Positions 3,619-26,045 of a stretch of 64,000 bases of DNA are shown here, in pieces. The stretch spans positions 16,288 to 80,287 of the forward strand of contig CAZSTG010000004.1 in NCBI GenBank assembly GCA_964609895.1, read 5' to 3'. A model generated the notes under the pieces. The model was given only the letters and a program-made list of their open reading frames with translations. It was not told the DNA's origin and did not search any database. The position numbers were made by a program, and so were the translations under genes. Source of the stretch: an uncultured Gammaproteobacteria bacterium (lineage in GTDB: Bacteria; Patescibacteriota; Microgenomatia; UBA10105; UBA927). Position 1 is the first letter of the stretch; every line of letters begins with the position of its first letter.

Positions 3619-4410
3619 TTACAACAGCAGTGTTTTCATTGTTGTAGGAATCTGTAGAGCCAAATCGGTTGCATTAAAAAACGGCCCGACTGTTGTATAA
3701 AGATCATCACCTGCAGCCTTGTTGATAAAACTGCCGGCTACCGCTGCCAAAAAAGGATCATGTGTACATGCAAGTGCAGCAATAAGACCGGCAAGGACAT
3801 CTCCTGTTCCTCCTTTTGTCATTCCCGCGTTTCCGCCGGAAATTTTTTCTTCATGGATTCCATCCGTTATCACATCAATTTGCCCCTTTTCCACAACTAT
3901 ACAGGTATGTTGTTTGGCAAATGCAGTGGGGGTAATAGTGGGGTTTCCGTTTTGCAGCAGTGCAAATTCCTGATGATGTGGCGTCAAAATTGCATGCTGA
4001 GGAATATGCGCTGTATCCATCATCTGCAACGCGCCGGCATCAATCACCCATTGTTTATGTGGATAGGCTTGTAACAATCCGTCAGTTAATGTTTTGGTTT
4101 CCCGTGTCCGTTCCATTCCGGGACCAATCAGAATACAGTCATCCTCTTCAATATATGCAGGAAGCGCATTTCTCTGGATGACAATCCCATTTTTAAATGC
4201 TTCCTTTGCCGACTGGACTATCGCGTTGTTTTCAGGCGTTGATGCAAAATGTACCAAATCAACGATACGGGAAGCGACCGTGAGTGACCAAATGCTGGCC
4301 GCGTGGAACAAATCCGATCCGCCGATAATGAGAAGCTTTCCGTTCTGGCCTTTATGGGAATCGGGGTGGGGCAACCGCACATGCTCTTTGATGAATGTTT
4401 TATCAATCAT
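3619..4410 (-). CDS. nnrD: ADP-dependent NAD(P)H-hydrate dehydratase (YjeF C-terminal domain family)
   Basis: 263 aa. GGSDLF... and GGTGDVLAGLIAAL motifs of the carbohydrate-kinase-like YjeF_C domain. Confidence 0.75.
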   Translation of the reverse strand: MIDKTFIKEHVRLPHPDSHKGQNGKLLIIGGSDLFHAASIWSLTVASRIVDLVHFASTPENNAIVQSAKEAFKNGIVIQRNALPAYIEEDDCILIGPGMERTRETKTLTDGLLQAYPHKQWVIDAGALQMMDTAHIPQHAILTPHHQEFALLQNGNPTITPTAFAKQHTCIVVEKGQIDVITDGIHEEKISGGNAGMTKGGTGDVLAGLIAALACTHDPFLAAVAGSFINKAAGDDLYTTVGPFFNATDLALQIPTTMKTLLL

Positions 4411-16081: not shown

Positions 16082-16351
16082 ATGCATTGGTTCAATGGAG
16101 ATACAGTACAGATGCTTCCGTGGATGAGTATCGGATTCATTCCTACCATGCTTTGGAGTCTTGGATGGAAAGGACTCGCGTTGTGGCACGCGGCAAAACG
16201 AAATGAAAAATGGTGGTTTATCGGAATGTTGGTTATAAACACAGTAGGAATTCTGGAAATCTGCTATCTTTTGTTTGCCGTAAAACTGTTTGCGGGGACA
16301 GATACAAAGACGGTGATGAAAAAACCAACGCAAAAAAAGCGTTCTTCATGA
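16082..16351 (+). CDS. small hypothetical membrane protein
   Basis: 89 aa with two hydrophobic helices. ATGA overlap with epmA. Confidence 0.4.
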   Translation: MHWFNGDTVQMLPWMSIGFIPTMLWSLGWKGLALWHAAKRNEKWWFIGMLVINTVGILEICYLLFAVKLFAGTDTKTVMKKPTQKKRSS

Positions 16352-18934: not shown

Positions 18935-21079
18935 TTATACTGCTGGCCATGCAGAAATAATCAGCTTGTTGTCATGTTGCCGCGGCAGTTGTCCCCAAAT
19001 ACTTTCAGTCACAAATGGCATAAACGGATGCAACAGTTTCAGTACGGTCAGAAGAATATGACGGTACACGGCAAGAGCTTGTGTGTCTCCTTGTTTGAAC
19101 CGCTCTTTATTCTGTTCCAAATAGTCATCAGCTAGTGTGTGCCATGTAAAATCATAGAGCATCTGCGCCGCATCAGAATATCTGTACGTATCCATATATT
19201 TTGTTGTCGTCTTCACAGTCACTTCAAGTTTTTTTAACATTGCCAGATCACTCTTGTCTACATCTTTATCCATTGTCTTGTCATAAAAGGGAAGGTCTTT
19301 GATGTTCTCGGTATTCATTAAAAAAAGACGCGAAATATTCCAAAGTTTATTGGCAAAATTTCGCATACCTCGAATTTTATCCTCAGAAAGGGATATATCA
19401 TTACCTGCTGCTGCTCCAAACACAAGCGCCATACGCAAGGCATCTGCTCCGTACAAATCTACCATCTTAATGGGATTGACCACATTGCCTTTGCTCTTAC
19501 TCATCTTTTGTCCTTTACTGTCCCGAACCAATCCATGAAGATACACTTTTTTAAACGGCACCTGACCGGTCACATACAACCCTACCATCAGCATACGACA
19601 CACCCACCACGGTAAAATATCGTAGCCCGTTTCCATCACGGAAGTAGGGTAGAAGGTGTCAAAATCAGTGTTATCACTGTTGGCCTTCAGTGTGGCAAAC
19701 GGCCACTGTGCACTGGAAAACCACGTATCAAAAACATCCTCGTCTTGTGTGAGAACTGTGCCTCCACATGTCGGACATTTTTCTGGAACGCTTCCATCTG
19801 TAATAATCCATTCTTTCCCAACATTCGTTTTCGCACATGCCTCACATCGCCACGCAGGAATTCTGATTCCCCATACGATTTGACGGCTGATATTCCAGTC
19901 ATGAAAATCATTCAACCATTGAGTTGCGGTTTTTTCAAACCGTTTCGGCACAAATGACACTTCCTTTTTGGCAATTGCAGTGATTGCCCGATCTGCAAGC
20001 GGTTTAATTTTCACAAACCACTGGGACATGGGGAGCGGCTCGAGTGTCGTTCCGCATTTATAGCAGGTGCCGACGGTATGTACATACCCTTCATCCACAT
20101 GGTCAATAAGTCCTTTTACCTTCAGATCTTCAACAACCTTTGCCCGCGCCGCTTTTATGCGAAGCCCTGCATACGAACCGGTCACGGCAGTCAGTTTTCC
20201 GTCAAATCCGATTACCTGTACAAGCGGAAGATTGTGGCGCTTGCCGATTTCGAAGTCTGTCACATCATGGCTAGGCGTCACTTTCACAACGCCTGTACCA
20301 AATGCGGGATCAACCGCCTCATCGGCAACAACTTTGAGCTTCACTTTACCGATAAGCCCATCAAATTCAATTTCTTTTCCAACATAGTCTTTGTAGCGTT
20401 TATCTGTCGGATGAACGGCAACTGCCGTATCGCCGAATTTCGTTTCAGGACGCACGGTTGCCAGCACAAACGGGCCGTATTTGAGATAGTAGAGTGGGTC
20501 AATCTGCTCCACGTGCTTCACTTCCAAATCAGAAAAACTTGTACCGCATTTGGTGCAGTAATTCACCAACCGTTCTCCGCGATAGATAAGCCCGTCATCA
20601 TGCATTTTCTTAAATGTCTTATACACAATAGCAATGATTGCAGGATCAAGTGGAAATTTAAGTCGCGGCCAATCCAAAGAAAAACCCATCCGACGAAGCT
20701 GTGACTCCATACTGCCACGGTTATTTTGCGCAAAATCCCAAATCGCTTTATAGAGTTCATCCCGCGAATAGTCAAAACGGCTTTTCCCTTGTTTAGCCAA
20801 AAATTTCTCAAAGACATACTGTGTCTCGAATCCCGCGTGATCAAATCCGGGTTGCCATAATGTAACATCACCCTTCATCCGGTGATACCGGATCATAATA
20901 TCCTCAATAGTAAACATCGCGTGTCCCAAATGAAGATCACCGTTGGCATTTGGAAGAGGAAGGATAACACAGAATGGGTCTTTTCCTGTTTTTTTGACCG
21001 GAGCAAAACAATGCTCTTGTTCCCATGAGGAATAGATTGTCTCTTCAAACGATTTTGGAGCGTAGGCTGTATCCATCAC
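18935..21079 (-). CDS. valS: valine--tRNA ligase (compact form)
   Basis: 714 aa. HIGH region PNANGDLHLGHA. KMSKS is present as KMSKSKGN. WNISRQ class-Ia motif. ValRS-type TVRPETKFGDTAVAVHP segment. Confidence 0.65.
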   Translation of the reverse strand: MMDTAYAPKSFEETIYSSWEQEHCFAPVKKTGKDPFCVILPLPNANGDLHLGHAMFTIEDIMIRYHRMKGDVTLWQPGFDHAGFETQYVFEKFLAKQGKSRFDYSRDELYKAIWDFAQNNRGSMESQLRRMGFSLDWPRLKFPLDPAIIAIVYKTFKKMHDDGLIYRGERLVNYCTKCGTSFSDLEVKHVEQIDPLYYLKYGPFVLATVRPETKFGDTAVAVHPTDKRYKDYVGKEIEFDGLIGKVKLKVVADEAVDPAFGTGVVKVTPSHDVTDFEIGKRHNLPLVQVIGFDGKLTAVTGSYAGLRIKAARAKVVEDLKVKGLIDHVDEGYVHTVGTCYKCGTTLEPLPMSQWFVKIKPLADRAITAIAKKEVSFVPKRFEKTATQWLNDFHDWNISRQIVWGIRIPAWRCEACAKTNVGKEWIITDGSVPEKCPTCGGTVLTQDEDVFDTWFSSAQWPFATLKANSDNTDFDTFYPTSVMETGYDILPWWVCRMLMVGLYVTGQVPFKKVYLHGLVRDSKGQKMSKSKGNVVNPIKMVDLYGADALRMALVFGAAAGNDISLSEDKIRGMRNFANKLWNISRLFLMNTENIKDLPFYDKTMDKDVDKSDLAMLKKLEVTVKTTTKYMDTYRYSDAAQMLYDFTWHTLADDYLEQNKERFKQGDTQALAVYRHILLTVLKLLHPFMPFVTESIWGQLPRQHDNKLIISAWPAV

Positions 21080-22430: not shown

Positions 22431-22502
22431 TGTCAGCGGCGGGGATCGGACCTGCGACACACGCCTTATGAAGGCGCTGCTCTACCACTGAGCTACGCTG
22501 AC
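22431..22502 (-). tRNA. tRNA-Met (anticodon CAT; elongator vs initiator vs Ile2-lysidine identity not resolvable by eye)
   Basis: Minus-strand read GTCAGCG-TA-GCTC-AGTGGTA-GAGC-A-GCGCC-TTCATAA-GGCGT-GTGTC-GCAGG-TCCGATC-CCCGC-CGCTGAC-A. Perfect 7-bp acceptor stem, U8/A9, 4-bp D-stem, U33 and A37 flanking CAT. One A-C mismatch in the T-stem and a non-canonical T-loop. Confidence 0.7.
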
Positions 22503-22512
22503 AATTGAAGCT

Positions 22513-22541
22513 ATTGTACGGGATTTACCCAGCAAAAACAA
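22513..22541 (-). promoter_or_regulatory. candidate promoter for tRNA-Met (TTGTTT - 17 bp - TACAAT on minus strand)
   Basis: Reverse complement of 22513-22541 gives TTGTTT-ttgctgggtaaatcccg-TACAAT, ending 10 nt upstream of the tRNA 5' end. Confidence 0.35.
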
Positions 22542-22743
22542 CCATTAATACAGAAGAATGTGTGGTCGTGCCGGCAAAAGATTGGTTGCCACACTCTACC
22601 CAGTCGGTTGTAGTGTTTACACCAGTTCCGAAAGGAATGTAGGTTTCTTTCAAAAAAGATGTGGCAGTGTGCCCAACACATTCACCGCCTCGCTATACAA
22701 AATGGTCAAAATCAGGTATACTCAGCTTTGTTCTTTAACGAAC

Positions 22744-22813
22744 CGCGGGGTAGTGTAAAGTTGCACAGAAGGCTCATAATCTTCTAGACCAGGTGCGATT
22801 CCTGGCTCCGCAA
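22744..22813 (+). tRNA. candidate second tRNA with CAT anticodon (non-canonical features)
   Basis: CGCGGGG-TA-GTGT-AAAGTT-GCAC-A-GAAGG-CTCATAA-TCTTC-TAGA-CCAGG-TGCGATT-CCTGG-CTCCGCA-A. Cloverleaf folds with U33/A37, a 4-nt variable loop and a 6-nt D-loop. C1 is opposite A72 (mismatch) and the T-loop TGCGATT lacks the usual TTC. A TATACT -10 element sits about 25 nt upstream. Confidence 0.4.
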
Positions 22814-22829
22814 CAAAGTTGACGACGTA

Positions 22830-22838
22830 TGCTATACT
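22830..22838 (+). promoter_or_regulatory. extended -10 promoter element (TGcTATACT)
   Basis: TG at 22830-22831 and TATACT at 22833-22838. No well-spaced -35. Would drive a short transcript toward tRNA-Trp. Confidence 0.4.
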
Positions 22839-23017
22839 AGTTGCCAAGTGAATAAATGTCACAGGAAGATTGATTGGGATCTTCCTATCGATGAAAATCG
22901 AGACTGAGAAGGCTACCTGCGCATTGAGCGAGGATGTCTGATCCAGAAGCTTACCTGTAAAAATAAAGCGCCATGTGTCGCGTTCCTGCGGAGCATGTAA
23001 TAAGATTTCTTACATGT

Positions 23018-23041
23018 CCCTCGCATAGGCGGGGGATTTTT
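23018..23041 (+). terminator. intrinsic-terminator-like hairpin (CCCTCGC-atag-GCGGGGG followed by ATTTTTGT)
   Basis: 7-bp GC-rich stem with one U-G pair, 4-nt loop and a T-rich tail. Confidence 0.45.
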
Positions 23042-23080
23042 GTAAGCGATGAAACAAGGTGGAACAGCCTTTTTATGTAG

Positions 23081-23129
23081 GCCCTTGTAAGTTACCAAAA
23101 CTATTTTGGTGATTTACAAGGGCTTTTTT
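23081..23129 (+). terminator. strong rho-independent terminator (GCCCTTGTAA ... TTACAAGGGC + TTTTTT)
   Basis: 10-bp perfect stem (23081-23090 / 23114-23123) with internal sub-hairpin, then a T6 run at 23124-23129, ending 8 nt before tRNA-Trp. Confidence 0.6.
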
Positions 23130-23136
23130 CGTTTGT

Positions 23137-23207
23137 AGGGGTGTAGTGAAACGGTATCACGGCAGTCTCCAAAACTGCTATTTCAGGTTCAAATCCTGAC
23201 ACCCCTG
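23137..23207 (+). tRNA. tRNA-Trp (anticodon CCA)
   Basis: AGGGGTG-TA-GTGA-AACGGTA-TCAC-G-GCAGT-CTCCAAA-ACTGC-TATT-TCAGG-TTCAAAT-CCTGA-CACCCCT-G. All stems perfect. Canonical TTCAAAT T-loop. U33 and A37 flank CCA. Confidence 0.85.
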
Positions 23208-23297
23208 CCTATGAATCACTATACACAAACATCGTGGAGGACATACTGGCGAAGCAATTCGTTTGTATTAACCCGTAAAAATTTTGGAAAAGGAACT

Positions 23298-24599
23298 ATG
23301 AAAAAACAAAATAATGAAATACTAGCAAAAACATATTTGAACTTACCGCACTTTTTAAAAAAGTATGGGGTAGGTTTGCCGGATCCGTATTTGCACCCAA
23401 AAACAAAAAAGGTGCTGCAACCTGAAGATCTAGCGCCAATTTTTCCGCGTGAACTCATACGACAGGAAACAACATTGAAAAAATCAGTAGTGATACCGGA
23501 TGAGGTGTATGAGCTGTATAAAACTTACAGACCATCCCCATTATTGCGGCTGCGGCGGCTTGAAAAACGGCTAGGGACGCCTGCGCATATCTATGCAAAA
23601 TATGAAGGCGTCTCGCCTGTGGGAAGCCACAAATTTAATACTGCCTTGGCACAGGCCTATTACAACAAAAAGGAGGGGATAACGACGCTCACAACGGAAA
23701 CGGGTGCAGGACAGTGGGGGTCAGCACTAACACTCGCAACAAGAATGTTTGGGATGAAGTGCATTGTCTTCATGGTGCAGAGTTCGTATGACCAAAAACC
23801 GTACAGAAAAACGGTCATGCATCTCTATGGAGGAGTGGTACATGCAAGTCCGTCGACCAACACCACTTCAGGAAGACAATTTCTTAAAGACTATCCGCAT
23901 ACGAATGGCAGTTTGGGGATGGCGATATCTGAAGCGATTGAAACTGCAGTTTGTGGTAAGAACACAAGATACGCGCTGGGCAGTGCGCTCAATCACGTGA
24001 TGCTGCATCAAACCATCATCGGTCAGGAAGCGAAAAAACAGTTAGAACAGACAGATACATGTCCTGACATAATCATCGGCTGTTGCGGAGGAGGAAGTAA
24101 TTTCGCAGGAATCGCATTTCCTTTTCTTGCGGACAAATTAGCGGGTAAAACGAAAAACACTCGCTTTATCGCAGTTGAACCAACGGCATGTCCGTCGCTC
24201 ACTAAGGGCGAGTACCGCTATGATTATGGTGATACTGCAGGGATGACACCCCTCATGAAAATGTATACCGTCGGCAGCGGATATATACCGTCGCCGATTC
24301 ATGCAGGAGGACTTCGATACCACGGAGTGGCACCACTCGTAAGTTTTTTATATCATAAAAAACTCATCGAAGCTGCCGCATATGGACAGAAAGAAGTATT
24401 TGATGCAGCAAAGCTCTTTATTGAAACCGAAGGCATTATTCCTGCACCGGAATCAGCACACGCGATTAAACATGTGTTAGTTGAAGCGCTACGGGCGAAA
24501 AAAGAAGAGAAAAAGAAAACAATTCTGTTTAATTTGTCGGGACATGGACTGTTGGATCTCGGCGCGTATGAAACATATTTGGAAGGAAAAATGAAATAA
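23298..24599 (+). CDS. trpB2: TrpB2-type tryptophan synthase beta-like PLP enzyme (stand-alone; putative indole + serine -> tryptophan)
   Basis: Start at MKKQNNEIL (RBS aaaaggaact). PLP-lysine motif GSHKFN. Gly-rich loop GCCGGGSNFAGIAF. About 433 aa, the long TrpB2 form. No trpA is adjacent. Confidence 0.65.
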   Translation: MKKQNNEILAKTYLNLPHFLKKYGVGLPDPYLHPKTKKVLQPEDLAPIFPRELIRQETTLKKSVVIPDEVYELYKTYRPSPLLRLRRLEKRLGTPAHIYAKYEGVSPVGSHKFNTALAQAYYNKKEGITTLTTETGAGQWGSALTLATRMFGMKCIVFMVQSSYDQKPYRKTVMHLYGGVVHASPSTNTTSGRQFLKDYPHTNGSLGMAISEAIETAVCGKNTRYALGSALNHVMLHQTIIGQEAKKQLEQTDTCPDIIIGCCGGGSNFAGIAFPFLADKLAGKTKNTRFIAVEPTACPSLTKGEYRYDYGDTAGMTPLMKMYTVGSGYIPSPIHAGGLRYHGVAPLVSFLYHKKLIEAAAYGQKEVFDAAKLFIETEGIIPAPESAHAIKHVLVEALRAKKEEKKKTILFNLSGHGLLDLGAYETYLEGKMK

Positions 24600-24607
24600 G
24601 AAAGAAA

Positions 24608-24632
24608 GCGGGCGGGAACATACCCCGCCCGC
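24608..24632 (+). terminator. GC-rich hairpin (GCGGGCGGG-aacatac-CCCGCCCGC) between trpB2 and trpS; weak U-tract
   Basis: Perfect 9-bp stem. The downstream ATGTATAAATAC is only partly U-rich. Could be an attenuating or processing structure rather than a full terminator. Confidence 0.4.
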
Positions 24633-24674
24633 ATGTATAAATACAAATGATACAATGAAGGAAAGGAACATTAT

Positions 24675-26045
24675 ATGAAACGAATATTGTCAGGCATCAC
24701 ACCAAGCGGGGATGGGACACTCCACATAGGAAACTATCTCGGCGCGGTAAAACAGTTTATTGACATGGCTCGCACTAATGAGTGCTTTCTTTTTGTGGCT
24801 GATTTACACGCACTCACCACTATCCAAAATAAAAATCAGTTACAAAAAAATGTAGAGTCACTCATTCTTAATGAGCTAGCTTTACTGAAAGGATTCTTAA
24901 CACCAGAAGAATTTGAAAGGCTTGTTTTTTACAGACAATCTGACCTTGCAGGAATGCATCCGGAACTGCAAACAATTCTGAACAACATAACACCGCTTGG
25001 CCTGTTAAAACGAGCGCATGCGTACAAAGACAAACTACAAAAAGACATCATGGAAGATGACATCAATGTCGGGTTATTTTGCTACCCGATTCTCATGGCA
25101 TCAGACATTCTGCTCTACAAGCCAGATCTTGTACCAGTTGGGAAAGACCAAAAACAGCATGTGGAAATTGCCAGAGATGTCGCAGAGCGGTTTAACCGCG
25201 TCTACAAAAAACAAATATTCAAACTTCCGGAACCGTTTATTCCGGAATCAGTCGCCACCATTCTTGGCACCGACGGAAAAAGGAAAATGAGCAAGTCCTT
25301 AGGAAATATCATTTCTATTTTTGAGTCCGAAGACACAATCAAAAAACAGGTAATGGCAACATACACCGATCCGACACGGGCTCACGCTACAGACGCTGGA
25401 CATATCGAAGGAAACATGGTGTTTACATACCTCGACTTTTTTGGGAAAAAGGAAAAAGTAGATGAAATGAAAAATGCGTACACGAAGGGGCAAATAGCAG
25501 ATGTTGAAGTCAAACACTATTTATATGATTCTTTGCTGAAATACTTTCAAAACGCACGCGCTGCATATGAAGAGCTTAAAAATAATCAGGGAATGGTCAA
25601 GGAAATTTTGTCAAAAGGAAAAGAAAAAGCTATAGCCGTTGCAGAACAGACAATAAAAGAGGTCAGAGAGACAATCGGACTGCAAAACATCTATTCTCTT
25701 GGGGAAAGCAAAAAAACAGTCATTTCCATCGATGATTTTGCCGCCGTAGATATCAGAGTGGGGAAGGTAGAATCCGCTGAACATGTGGAAAAAAGTGAAA
25801 AACTGATCCGTCTCCACATAAACTTTGGCAATTTAGGAAAGCGGATTATTTTCACTGGCGTCAGACAATATGGATATACGGCCGACAGCTTTATCGGAAA
25901 ACAGTTTTTCTTTATCGTGAATCTTGCCCCACGAAAGATGATGGGTGAAGAATCACAGGGAATGATCATGGCCGCTGATGCGGAGGATGGAAAACCAATA
26001 TTTTTATCAGGCGACAATCTTCCTCTTGGATCAAAAATACGGTAA
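24675..26045 (+). CDS. trpS: tryptophan--tRNA ligase fused to C-terminal Trbp111/EMAP-II-like tRNA-binding (OB-fold) domain
   Basis: HIGH-region equivalent GITPSGDGTLHIGNYLGA and KMSKSLGN. About 330-aa catalytic core. An extra C-terminal tail of about 110 aa (DIRVGKVESAEHVEKSEKLIRLHINFGN...GEESQGMIMAA) resembles the MetRS-C/Trbp111 tRNA-binding fold. Confidence 0.75.
   Translation: MKRILSGITPSGDGTLHIGNYLGAVKQFIDMARTNECFLFVADLHALTTIQNKNQLQKNVESLILNELALLKGFLTPEEFERLVFYRQSDLAGMHPELQTILNNITPLGLLKRAHAYKDKLQKDIMEDDINVGLFCYPILMASDILLYKPDLVPVGKDQKQHVEIARDVAERFNRVYKKQIFKLPEPFIPESVATILGTDGKRKMSKSLGNIISIFESEDTIKKQVMATYTDPTRAHATDAGHIEGNMVFTYLDFFGKKEKVDEMKNAYTKGQIADVEVKHYLYDSLLKYFQNARAAYEELKNNQGMVKEILSKGKEKAIAVAEQTIKEVRETIGLQNIYSLGESKKTVISIDDFAAVDIRVGKVESAEHVEKSEKLIRLHINFGNLGKRIIFTGVRQYGYTADSFIGKQFFFIVNLAPRKMMGEESQGMIMAADAEDGKPIFLSGDNLPLGSKIR

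Follow-up and report, generated by a model that had tools for sequence, protein, structure and literature searches.

What does the spacer in front of a set of tryptophan genes do in a member of the Microgenomates? The window analysed here is a stretch of 64,000 nt (positions 16,288 to 80,287 of contig CAZSTG010000004.1, assembly GCA_964609895.1), in which the interval 22815-23136 (+ strand) is a 322-nt spacer separating two tRNA genes, directly upstream of tRNA-Trp, trpB2 and trpS. An earlier reading of the bare sequence (the original prediction) had placed a promoter- and terminator-delimited structured RNA here, acting either as a cis leader or as an independent small RNA (sRNA); it overlooked that the 5' neighbour is tRNA-fMet, which makes the region a tRNA-tRNA spacer. 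This structured RNA is conserved, with compensatory changes in 20 non-redundant loci. Judged from sequence comparison, the element is very probably a tRNA-Trp-specific T-box riboswitch that acts by transcription attenuation and belongs to a reduced, short-Stem-I form of the Microgenomates, part of the Candidate Phyla Radiation (CPR). The best protein matches put the organism in this group, near Gottesmanbacteria. Of the two roles first proposed, that of a cis leader gating read-through into the tRNA-Trp/trpB2/trpS unit is the most likely, the competition between an antiterminator and a terminator being conserved.

Relatives were gathered from TrpB2 and TrpS genome and metagenome scans, and then from the neighbourhoods of close TrpS homologues (their loci carry numbers with L). 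With a single sequence as query, nhmmer located a homologue in a Gottesmanbacteria metagenome-assembled genome, 0.5 kb upstream of trpB2, and a profile search yielded 20 non-redundant copies, all on the coding strand and upstream of tRNA-Trp, trpB2 or trpS. Fourteen of the 20 loci have tRNA-Trp beginning within a few nt of the last terminator; in the others, trpS, trpB2 or a small ParB-like open reading frame (ORF) comes next. The copies fall into two architectures with mosaics, a long form of ~285-320 nt that includes the window and a short form of ~180-250 nt. The locus of the best TrpB2 relative among GTDB genomes, L001, has kept tRNA-fMet with the element 1.4 kb further on, so that simple synteny would miss this copy, which nhmmer found. 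Some loci, such as L090, L092 and L095, contain the element without an upstream tRNA-fMet. No T-box-like leader was found in distant TrpS relatives (<=68% identity; L097, L099, L100, L109, L114, L116, L120), most of which have no GGUGGNA upstream; L097 and L100 have one such string each.

Competing pairings at the 3' end

Positions 23055-23087 of the window (+ strand) read CAAGG-UGGAACA-GCC-(10 nt)-GGC-CCUUG. This is the layout of helix A1 (23055-23059/23083-23087), a bulge (UGGAACA, 23060-23066) and helix A2 (23067-23069/23080-23082) that defines a T-box antiterminator (PMC11297988, PMC7583486). The T-box sequence, AAGGUGGAACAGCC at 23056-23069, matches 11 of the 14 positions of the consensus AGGGUGGNACCGCG (PMC11297988), N counted, and L001 has AGGGUGGCACCGCC in its place. 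The original prediction had noticed a T-box-like string, AGGTGGAACAGCC, one nucleotide away from its true position (23057-23069, not 23056-23068), and had set a T-box aside as non-classical. The string is real, and we reverse that judgement: it is a genuine T-box sequence within a covarying antiterminator that shares positions with the second terminator. All 19 loci that have a T-box sequence contain GGUGG-A without variation, and the next base is C in 18 of them and A in L110. In an alignment of 17 sequences, the 8 antiterminator pairs are paired in 100% of cells, compared with 12-54% in slid controls, and 4 of the 8 show change on both sides. The bulge always has 7 nt and reads UGGNACN; in L110, which lies outside that alignment, it is UGGCAAC.

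Terminator T2 (23079-23129, + strand), identified by a terminator scan, consists of a ~21-bp hairpin at 23079-23125 (-30.5 kcal/mol) and a run of U6. Its pairs are formed in 96.6% of cells of the 17-sequence alignment, with double-sided change at 11 of the 19 counted pairs. The 5' arm of T2 holds the 3' strands of both A2 and A1, and T2 and the antiterminator are therefore mutually exclusive. The strand that they share, 23080-23087, corresponds to alignment columns 39-46, and it covaries three ways, with AAGG/CCUU/AAGG in some loci and ACGG/CCGU/ACGG in others (A1, T2 5' arm, T2 3' arm). Folding and alignment thus bear out the mutually exclusive terminator and antiterminator pairings for which the original prediction had asked, and the covariation of the hairpins in relatives is likewise present as compensatory changes. 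The calculated energies, about -5 to -8 kcal/mol for the antiterminator and -30.5 kcal/mol for T2, would fit a ligand-stabilised switch. All 14 adjacent tRNA-Trp genes have the anticodon CCA and the discriminator G73. Opposite G73, the bulge N makes a pair in 11 loci (C), a wobble in 3 (U) and a mismatch in 5 (A).

The decoding module and the hairpins that follow it

The 5' half of the element contains a short Stem I, a hairpin of 24 nt (22863-22886, + strand), which presents the specifier UGG (22875-22877) in its apical loop, followed by the purine G22878. All 9 of its pairs are 100% paired, 4 with double-sided change, and UGG plus a purine in the apical loop was found on covarying stems in 20/20 loci; the Stem I scan placed the hairpin correctly in 17 of these, and L081, L098 and L106 were assigned by eye. 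The original prediction had seen this hairpin, AGGAAGAT-8nt-ATCTTCCT, which is real, but had put it at 22886-22909 instead of 22863-22886. The specifier context is GAU-UGG-G in the window and GGA-UGG-A in relatives; the form GA(A/U)-UGG-R agrees with GAA-UGG-R of canonical Trp T-boxes, and UGG matches the regulated genes, tRNA-Trp (CCA), trpB2 and trpS. A 16-nt apex, AGAUUGAUUGGGAUCU, is invariant in 9/9 long-form loci. The double T-loop platform of the distal Stem I, which binds the elbow of the tRNA, is missing from this 24-nt hairpin. Since accepted short-Stem-I T-boxes lack the platform too (PMC7583486), its absence assigns the element to a subclass and does not exclude it.

Stem I stands in a three-way junction with helix P0 (22857-22860 with 22902-22905, + strand) and hairpin P1a (CGAU-GAAA-AUCG, 22889-22900, + strand). 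P0 is supported by a compensatory change, GUC/GAC in the window and AGCG/CGCU in L101, and P1a by RNAalifold and pair counts (3 of 4 pairs with double-sided change). P1a, the third arm, occupies the site at which short-form relatives have a kink-turn (K-turn). There the base of Stem I reads AGC-GUU-GA-UCCGG...CCGGG-GA-GCU, the same pattern as the T-box GA motif; L081 has a compensatory CAC/GUG variant, and the K-turn motif of L016, a Gribaldobacteria locus, aligns to the GA motif of the Rfam T-box family, RF00230. A helix UUGAU/AUCAR considered for the short-form relatives was dropped, as it overlaps the K-turn and the K-turn matches RF00230. In the long form, a pairing of the first GGC (GAGGCUGA) with GUCU was rejected by RNAalifold and by compensatory changes, which place the first GGC in P0 and the second in Stem II.

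In the Stem II-like helix (22906-22943, + strand), 6 of the 10 pairs change on both sides; its 2x2 internal loop (UA/AU) is conserved, and the upper helix is variable and covaries. Downstream of the whole helix comes an H-type pseudoknot of the Stem IIA/B kind (22944-22969, + strand), with IIA at 22944-22946/22955-22957 and IIB at 22949-22952/22966-22969. IIB covaries through GCUU/AAGC, GCCU/AGGC, GCCG/CGGC and GCUA/UAGC, and across 19 sequences 89.7% of cells are paired, against 21-38% with a slid partner. The window has an F-box-like CCUGUAA at 22954-22960 where relatives have CCGUUA or CCGUAA; CCGUUA is the F-box of RF00230. Helix Px (CAUG/CAUG, 22972-22997, + strand) surrounds a 3-bp hairpin and an internal loop, UGU/GAG, that does not vary. 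The helix is specific to this family, and no named T-box element corresponds to it. Its pair types in the family are CAUG/CAUG, GCGCA/UGCGU, GCGAG/CUCGU, ACGUG/CACGU and ACGAA/UUCGU. Over the whole long-form decoding module, 43 pairs are 96.3% paired and 17 have changes on both sides. The minimal member of the family, L081 (3780-3960), comprises a K-turn, a short Stem I with UGG, a linker hairpin, a T-box and a terminator; without Stem II, IIA/B and Px, it lacks both an elbow-binding platform and a Stem II module.

Hairpin H, GCATGTAA...TTACATGT, is the second hairpin of the original prediction. It too is real, with 7 Watson-Crick pairs and one G-U, and it lies at 22993-23017 (+ strand) with G rather than A as its first base. 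H is probably an alternative or transient pairing outside the stable fold. Its 5' arm overlaps the 3' strand of Px (CAUG is common to both), it has a calculated -5.6 kcal/mol against -9.3 kcal/mol for Px, and the minimum free energy fold of the whole leader picks Px and a long stem capped by the following hairpin, T1, not H. The 3' arm of H, CUUACA (23008-23013), can also pair with a repeat after T1, UGUAAG (23041-23046). Such duplexes average -6.6 kcal/mol for cognate and -4.4 kcal/mol for non-cognate partners, an edge that is suggestive only.

T1 (23016-23041, + strand) is a 9-bp GC-rich hairpin at 23016-23037 followed by A-U5 (terminator scan; -15.2 kcal/mol). The original prediction was right that two tandem terminator-like hairpins follow one another, T1 at 23016-23041 and T2 at 23079-23129, with U5 and U6 runs. 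A hairpin with a U-tract and covarying stems stands at the T1 position in 17 of the 20 loci. This is the position of Stem III, but the stem end is 18 nt from A1, or 13 nt counting the post-T1 repeat, whereas a T-box Stem III has purine flanks (5'-RRRxG - Stem III - AA-3') and adjoins the antiterminator. L089 and L092 have a small Stem III in place of T1 (AAAAG-[4-bp GNRA hairpin]-AGCG-A1). Further out, T1 is flanked by purine runs, a 5' run AAUAAG and a 3' run GAUGAAAC. We infer that T1 is homologous to Stem III but has grown into a pause site or a leaky terminator. In the glyQS T-box, Stem III has been proposed to serve chiefly as a pause site, and pausing aids tRNA capture (PMC6197855, PMC13001445). 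In L106 (3150-3500), the promoter, the decoding module, hairpin H and T1 are all kept.

At the 5' end of the element, the extended -10 promoter TGcTATACT is found at 22830-22838 (+ strand), as the original prediction had it. Transcription would start near 22845, ~7 nt past this element, giving a leader RNA of ~285 nt (about 22845-23129, + strand). Folding of the + strand gives -115.2 kcal/mol with z = -6.1 against dinucleotide shuffles; the - strand has z = -4.0. A 5' leader motif, AAUAAAUGUC at 22851-22860 (+ strand), is conserved in the family and matches the T-box 5' consensus auaAaagC, and its counterpart in L016, AAUAAAAGCG, aligns to RF00230 positions 1-9. A hexamer TTGACG (22819-22824) stands just 8 nt upstream of the -10 hexamer and, at that distance, is not a canonical -35. 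The arrangement TTGAC-N8-TGnTATACT is conserved in the closest relatives, and L098, L101, L106 and L115 have TTGACA at a spacing of 17-18 nt. A TTGAC(A/G) box 8 nt before TATACT (TTGACA-GTGTGTGn-TATACT) was seen in the window, L083, L085, L087, L089-L093, L095 and L096. It represents either an odd promoter geometry leaning on the extended -10 or a binding site.

Membership in the T-box family and rival readings

RF00230 recovers canonical T-boxes upstream of trpB2 in Dehalococcoidia, Thermoflexaceae and Thermoanaerobacterium (among the fetched loci, and used as positive controls) at 101-110 bits; Trp T-boxes of this kind thus stand before trpB2 in both Chloroflexota and Firmicutes. It also aligns end to end with positions 3622-3825 of L016 (51.1 bits, E = 1.4e-10). 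There, 72 model positions of the upper Stem I are deleted, and the K-turn, Stem II, IIA/B with the F-box, Stem III and the T-box are in register. A covariance model, R1, built only from antiterminators of the window's family, picked up one further CPR locus, L016, whose antiterminator it matches at 33.7 bits, the same one that RF00230 aligns. With filters off, R1 matched the RF00230 antiterminator in 4/4 control loci; it was the top match in 3, and in L075 it was the best on the + strand. Under the same setting, R1 missed L101 and L110, which have long A2 inserts, and the Staskawiczbacteria T-box L020, which has an intermediate Stem I and a canonical GGUGGUACCGCG. R1 is thus too narrow for use as evidence that the element is absent from a sequence. 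Taken together, homology and anatomy link the window element to canonical T-boxes and argue that it is a T-box despite failing the curated model.

That failure is one of several points that weigh against the T-box reading. The Rfam covariance scan recommended with the original prediction found no family match to the element, tRNAs aside, even at E <= 10. RF00230 does not match the window at the gathering threshold (93 bits), nor at E <= 10 over 22500-23300, and it does not match L001, six relatives or the short-form relative L090. Other Rfam matches in the window and its relatives were tRNAs, group I introns and chance miRNA-like matches to the long terminator hairpin. The bulge would present A to G73 as a mismatch in the window, L083, L085, L087 and L093, and the foot pair of A2 is G-C in the window where a G-U wobble is conserved. 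The window and the other long-form loci have no K-turn (GA motif) at the base of Stem I, and a K-turn has been called essential for short Stem I - Stem II T-boxes (PMC7583486). No S-turn (GAA/AGUA) is recognisable in the Stem II-like helix of the window; L016 has a GAA...GUAG pattern that aligns to the RF00230 model. T1 resembles a competent intrinsic terminator, and no element able to counteract it came to light; an anti-T1 pairing (GCGGAG, or GCGAGG of Stem II, with the T1 5' arm), sought by eye, is not conserved across the family. In L106, T1 is followed by a T-box remnant only (AUGGGUGGGGAG), with no T2 before the trpS start; this locus may be a copy in decay, or T1 may be its only point of regulation.

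Several of these points would also suit a decayed, non-switching relic, whose hairpins merely terminate the tRNA-fMet unit and constitutively damp the tRNA-Trp operon. The A-G73 mismatch, the K-turn missing from the window form, two strong terminators in series, a tRNA-fMet without its own terminator close to the TTGACG box and the -10, and the decay seen in L106 are what such a relic might look like. Yet every module is under purifying selection, with compensatory changes at 17/43 decoding pairs, 4/8 antiterminator pairs and 11/19 T2 pairs. The 16-nt apex is invariant in all nine long-form loci, and the element is found in loci without an upstream tRNA-fMet (such as L090, L092 and L095). Because compensatory changes occur in every module, we consider a relic unlikely. 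An independent trans-acting sRNA with its 3' end at T1 (~200 nt) or at T2 (~285 nt), for example a tRNA-Trp sponge or a base-pairing regulator, with the downstream genes expressed from elsewhere, would explain why the RNA is bounded by a promoter and a terminator, why 17 of the 20 loci have a good terminator-like hairpin at T1, and why L106 keeps the decoding module and T1 without a functional discriminator. We regard it as very improbable: the element lies on the same strand directly upstream of Trp genes in every locus, the conserved competition between antiterminator and terminator is meaningful only in cis, nothing resembling a promoter turned up after T2 in a promoter scan, and neither a second copy nor a target-like complement was found in the window.

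A ribosome-mediated attenuator, in which a leader peptide encoded within 22814-23136 would sense the supply of Trp-tRNA through its Trp codons, can draw on a 35-codon ORF (22973-23080) that has one TGG and spans T1, and on the genuine Trp-codon leader ORFs nearby (23211 onward) and in Microgenomates loci L002, L004 and L005, described below. The 35-codon ORF exists as the original prediction reported, with one Trp codon and no Shine-Dalgarno sequence, and the region is non-coding. [quoted passage not shown] Such an attenuator is scarcely credible here.

Our reading remains that of a T-box riboswitch. Behind it stand the conserved structures, the mutual exclusivity of antiterminator and T2, the conservation of UGG, the genomic setting and the chain of homology that leads to canonical T-boxes. 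After initiation ~7 nt past the extended -10, P0, Stem I with its UGG-G, P1a, the Stem II-like helix, IIA/B and Px would fold, and the CCA anticodon of tRNA-Trp would pair with the apical-loop UGG. RNA polymerase would then reach T1, where a strong pause or leaky termination might buy the slow short-Stem-I module time for tRNA capture. If the tRNA is uncharged, its 3' NCCA end would pair with UGGA of the bulge and stabilise the weak A1/A2 antiterminator. T2 would thereby be blocked, and read-through into tRNA-Trp, the Trp-codon leader ORF with trpB2, and trpS would follow. With charged tRNA, or none, T2 would form and transcription would stop at 23129.

A more elaborate scheme has two checkpoints: anticodon recognition would govern T1, through competition among Px, H and the post-T1 repeat, and the uncharged 3' end would govern T2, in an autoregulatory loop with a second, leader-peptide sensor. 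We hold this version to be doubtful. If it were true, one RNA would set the supply of tRNA-Trp, TrpS and the indole-salvage enzyme TrpB2 together, the first read-through product would be the ligand tRNA-Trp itself, and the second sensor, after tRNA processing, would be a leader peptide with G-x-E-[YF]-W-R.

Neighbouring genes and comparison with known systems

The element is flanked by tRNA-fMet, an initiator-type tRNA-Met with a C1:A72 mismatch (22744-22814, + strand), and by tRNA-Trp (23137-23209, + strand), with anticodon CCA and discriminator G73 (ARAGORN and Rfam). From the end of the tRNA-fMet gene it is 5 nt to the conserved TTGACG box and 15 nt to the -10 element, and a terminator scan of the region found no terminator belonging to that gene. 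The tRNA-Trp gene starts 7 nt after the U-run of T2. Between T2 and tRNA-Trp the promoter scan gave no candidate site, and tRNA-Trp, TrpB2 and TrpS would therefore come from read-through of the sensor. The first gene of the regulated unit would thus encode the presumed ligand of the riboswitch. The protein-coding block that follows (23211-26045, + strand) consists of a Trp-codon leader ORF fused in frame to trpB2, and then trpS. The trpB2 gene, for a TrpB-like pyridoxal phosphate enzyme, has its own start at 23298 and ends at 24599 (+ strand; NCBIfam, 664.7 bits), and trpS (24675-26045, + strand; NCBIfam) encodes a C-terminal tRNA-binding domain of the Trbp111/MetG-C type. The TrpS of many relatives additionally has a YbaK-type editing domain (PF04073). 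Elsewhere in the window, ValS (18935-21079, - strand) has only 714 aa; NCBIfam valS profiles match to about position 700 of 860, and the C-terminal coiled-coil region is missing.

Group I introns (RF00028) were observed upstream of the T-box in L081 (3526-3733, 75.9 bits) and L091 (715-918, 65.4 bits). The L081 intron is followed by the 3' half of tRNA-fMet and so lies inside that gene, which is why ARAGORN finds no tRNA-fMet in L081; the tRNA-fMet of the window (22744-22814) has no intron. In L089 (2505-2570), the intact tRNA-Trp is followed by a second tRNA-Trp 3'-half remnant (…TTTCAGGTTCAAATCCTGGTGCTCCTG) of the same type as in sister loci, which suggests a tRNA gene replacement beside the T-box.

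A short ORF between tRNA-Trp and trpB2 is conserved. It is found in the window at 23211-23297 (ATG start 23211) and also begins at 3870 in L001, 3884 in L016, 1609 in L020, 2478 in L083, 2545 in L087, 2569 in L089, 2508 in L090, 2564 in L092, 2532 in L093, 2032 in L095 and 1544 in L118, thus including Gribaldobacteria and Staskawiczbacteria. Its ATG stands 1-2 nt past the tRNA 3' end (conserved GCC-T-ATG-A), and its Trp codons, in the window among them the TGG at 23247-23249, sit in a conserved peptide, ...K-T-x-G-x-E-[YF]-W-R..., whose codons vary synonymously (TAC/TAT, CGA/CGG/CGT/CGC, GAA/GAG). Behind the ORF comes a small covarying hairpin. In the window, the stop has been lost and the ORF runs in frame into trpB2. 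From its sequence, the ORF is a candidate Trp-sensing leader or arrest peptide, additional to the T-box, and once the tRNA 3' end has been processed, it might remain as an mRNA with almost no leader. In L096 (1133-1174), the otherwise invariant TGG is TGA (…K-G-R-E-Y-stop), so that the ORF ends exactly at the Trp position. Roizmanbacteria/Levybacteria trpB2 loci without a T-box (L002 ~3810-3960, L004 ~3825-3990, L005 ~3745-3860) have classical-looking attenuators, with Trp-codon ORFs (e.g. MKNKIFSNNWWIDSLW, MYKYSKLIKVWRQ...) followed by a GC hairpin and a T-run. Thus, two different Trp-sensing leaders serve trpB2 within the Microgenomates.

Full-text literature searches found no paper linking T-boxes with the CPR or Patescibacteria, and in a literature search no tRNA gene under T-box control came up. 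If our assignment is correct, CPR genomes contain reduced T-boxes that standard annotation does not see. Without the elbow contact, tRNA capture is usually reasoned to be slower. A U-tract hairpin before the discriminator may let a co-transcriptional switch cope with this slow capture, a kinetic checkpoint that is testable in a natural variant. A regulated unit that opens with the gene of its own ligand would form a feedback loop and raises questions of basal leak and bistability. In genome-reduced CPR cells, the arrangement suggests that Trp charging and indole salvage are tightly controlled.

The nearest well-described systems are the class I transcriptional T-box leaders (RF00230), above all the Trp T-boxes that precede trpB-like genes in Dehalococcoidia/Chloroflexota, one of which has been reported before a trpB-like gene in Dehalococcoides (PMC2494555). 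They share with the window element the T-box sequence and its 7-nt bulge UGGNACN, A1/A2, a competing intrinsic terminator, the UGG-purine specifier context, IIA/B with an F-box, the 5' auaAaagC motif and the regulated trpB2. In contrast to the window element, they have a long Stem I with an AG bulge and the distal-loop T-loop elbow platform, and their specifier sits in a side bulge rather than an apical loop. The window element differs further in having no K-turn, no recognisable S-turn and a G-C rather than G-U foot of A2, and in its additional Px and hairpin H and the terminator-like hairpin with a U-tract at the Stem III position.

Short Stem I T-boxes mount the specifier in the apical loop (PMC7583486). 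Compared by description (PMC7583486, PMC11297988), the actinobacterial ileS T-boxes of Mycobacterium tuberculosis and Nocardia farcinica ('class II' in TBDB) resemble the window element in their short or ultrashort Stem I, the apical specifier, and Stem II with IIA/B instead of an elbow contact. They act on translation, with the ribosome-binding site sequestered or freed, and the literature consulted pairs a short Stem I with translational control (PMC11297988, PMC7778990), whereas the window element ends in an intrinsic terminator: where a Shine-Dalgarno sequestration platform would lie, it has a ~21-bp hairpin and U6, then a tRNA gene, with no ribosome-binding site. A short Stem I with an apical specifier combined with an intrinsic terminator is an unusual pairing. 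TBDB itself combines RF00230 with a model for Actinobacteria only (PMC7778990). The glyQS T-box of Bacillus subtilis works by transcription attenuation with a Stem III pause and two-step tRNA binding (PMC6197855, PMC13001445). L081 is similar to it in minimality, both being without Stem II and IIA/B, but the long Stem I of glyQS bears an elbow-binding platform, and the window's family has a Stem III-position hairpin with a full U-tract. Finally, trp leader-peptide attenuators respond to the same signal, the supply of charged tRNA-Trp, and L002, L004 and L005 have the same kind of read-out, a Trp-codon ORF with a terminator behind it, but the window element is untranslated and would read the tRNA directly.

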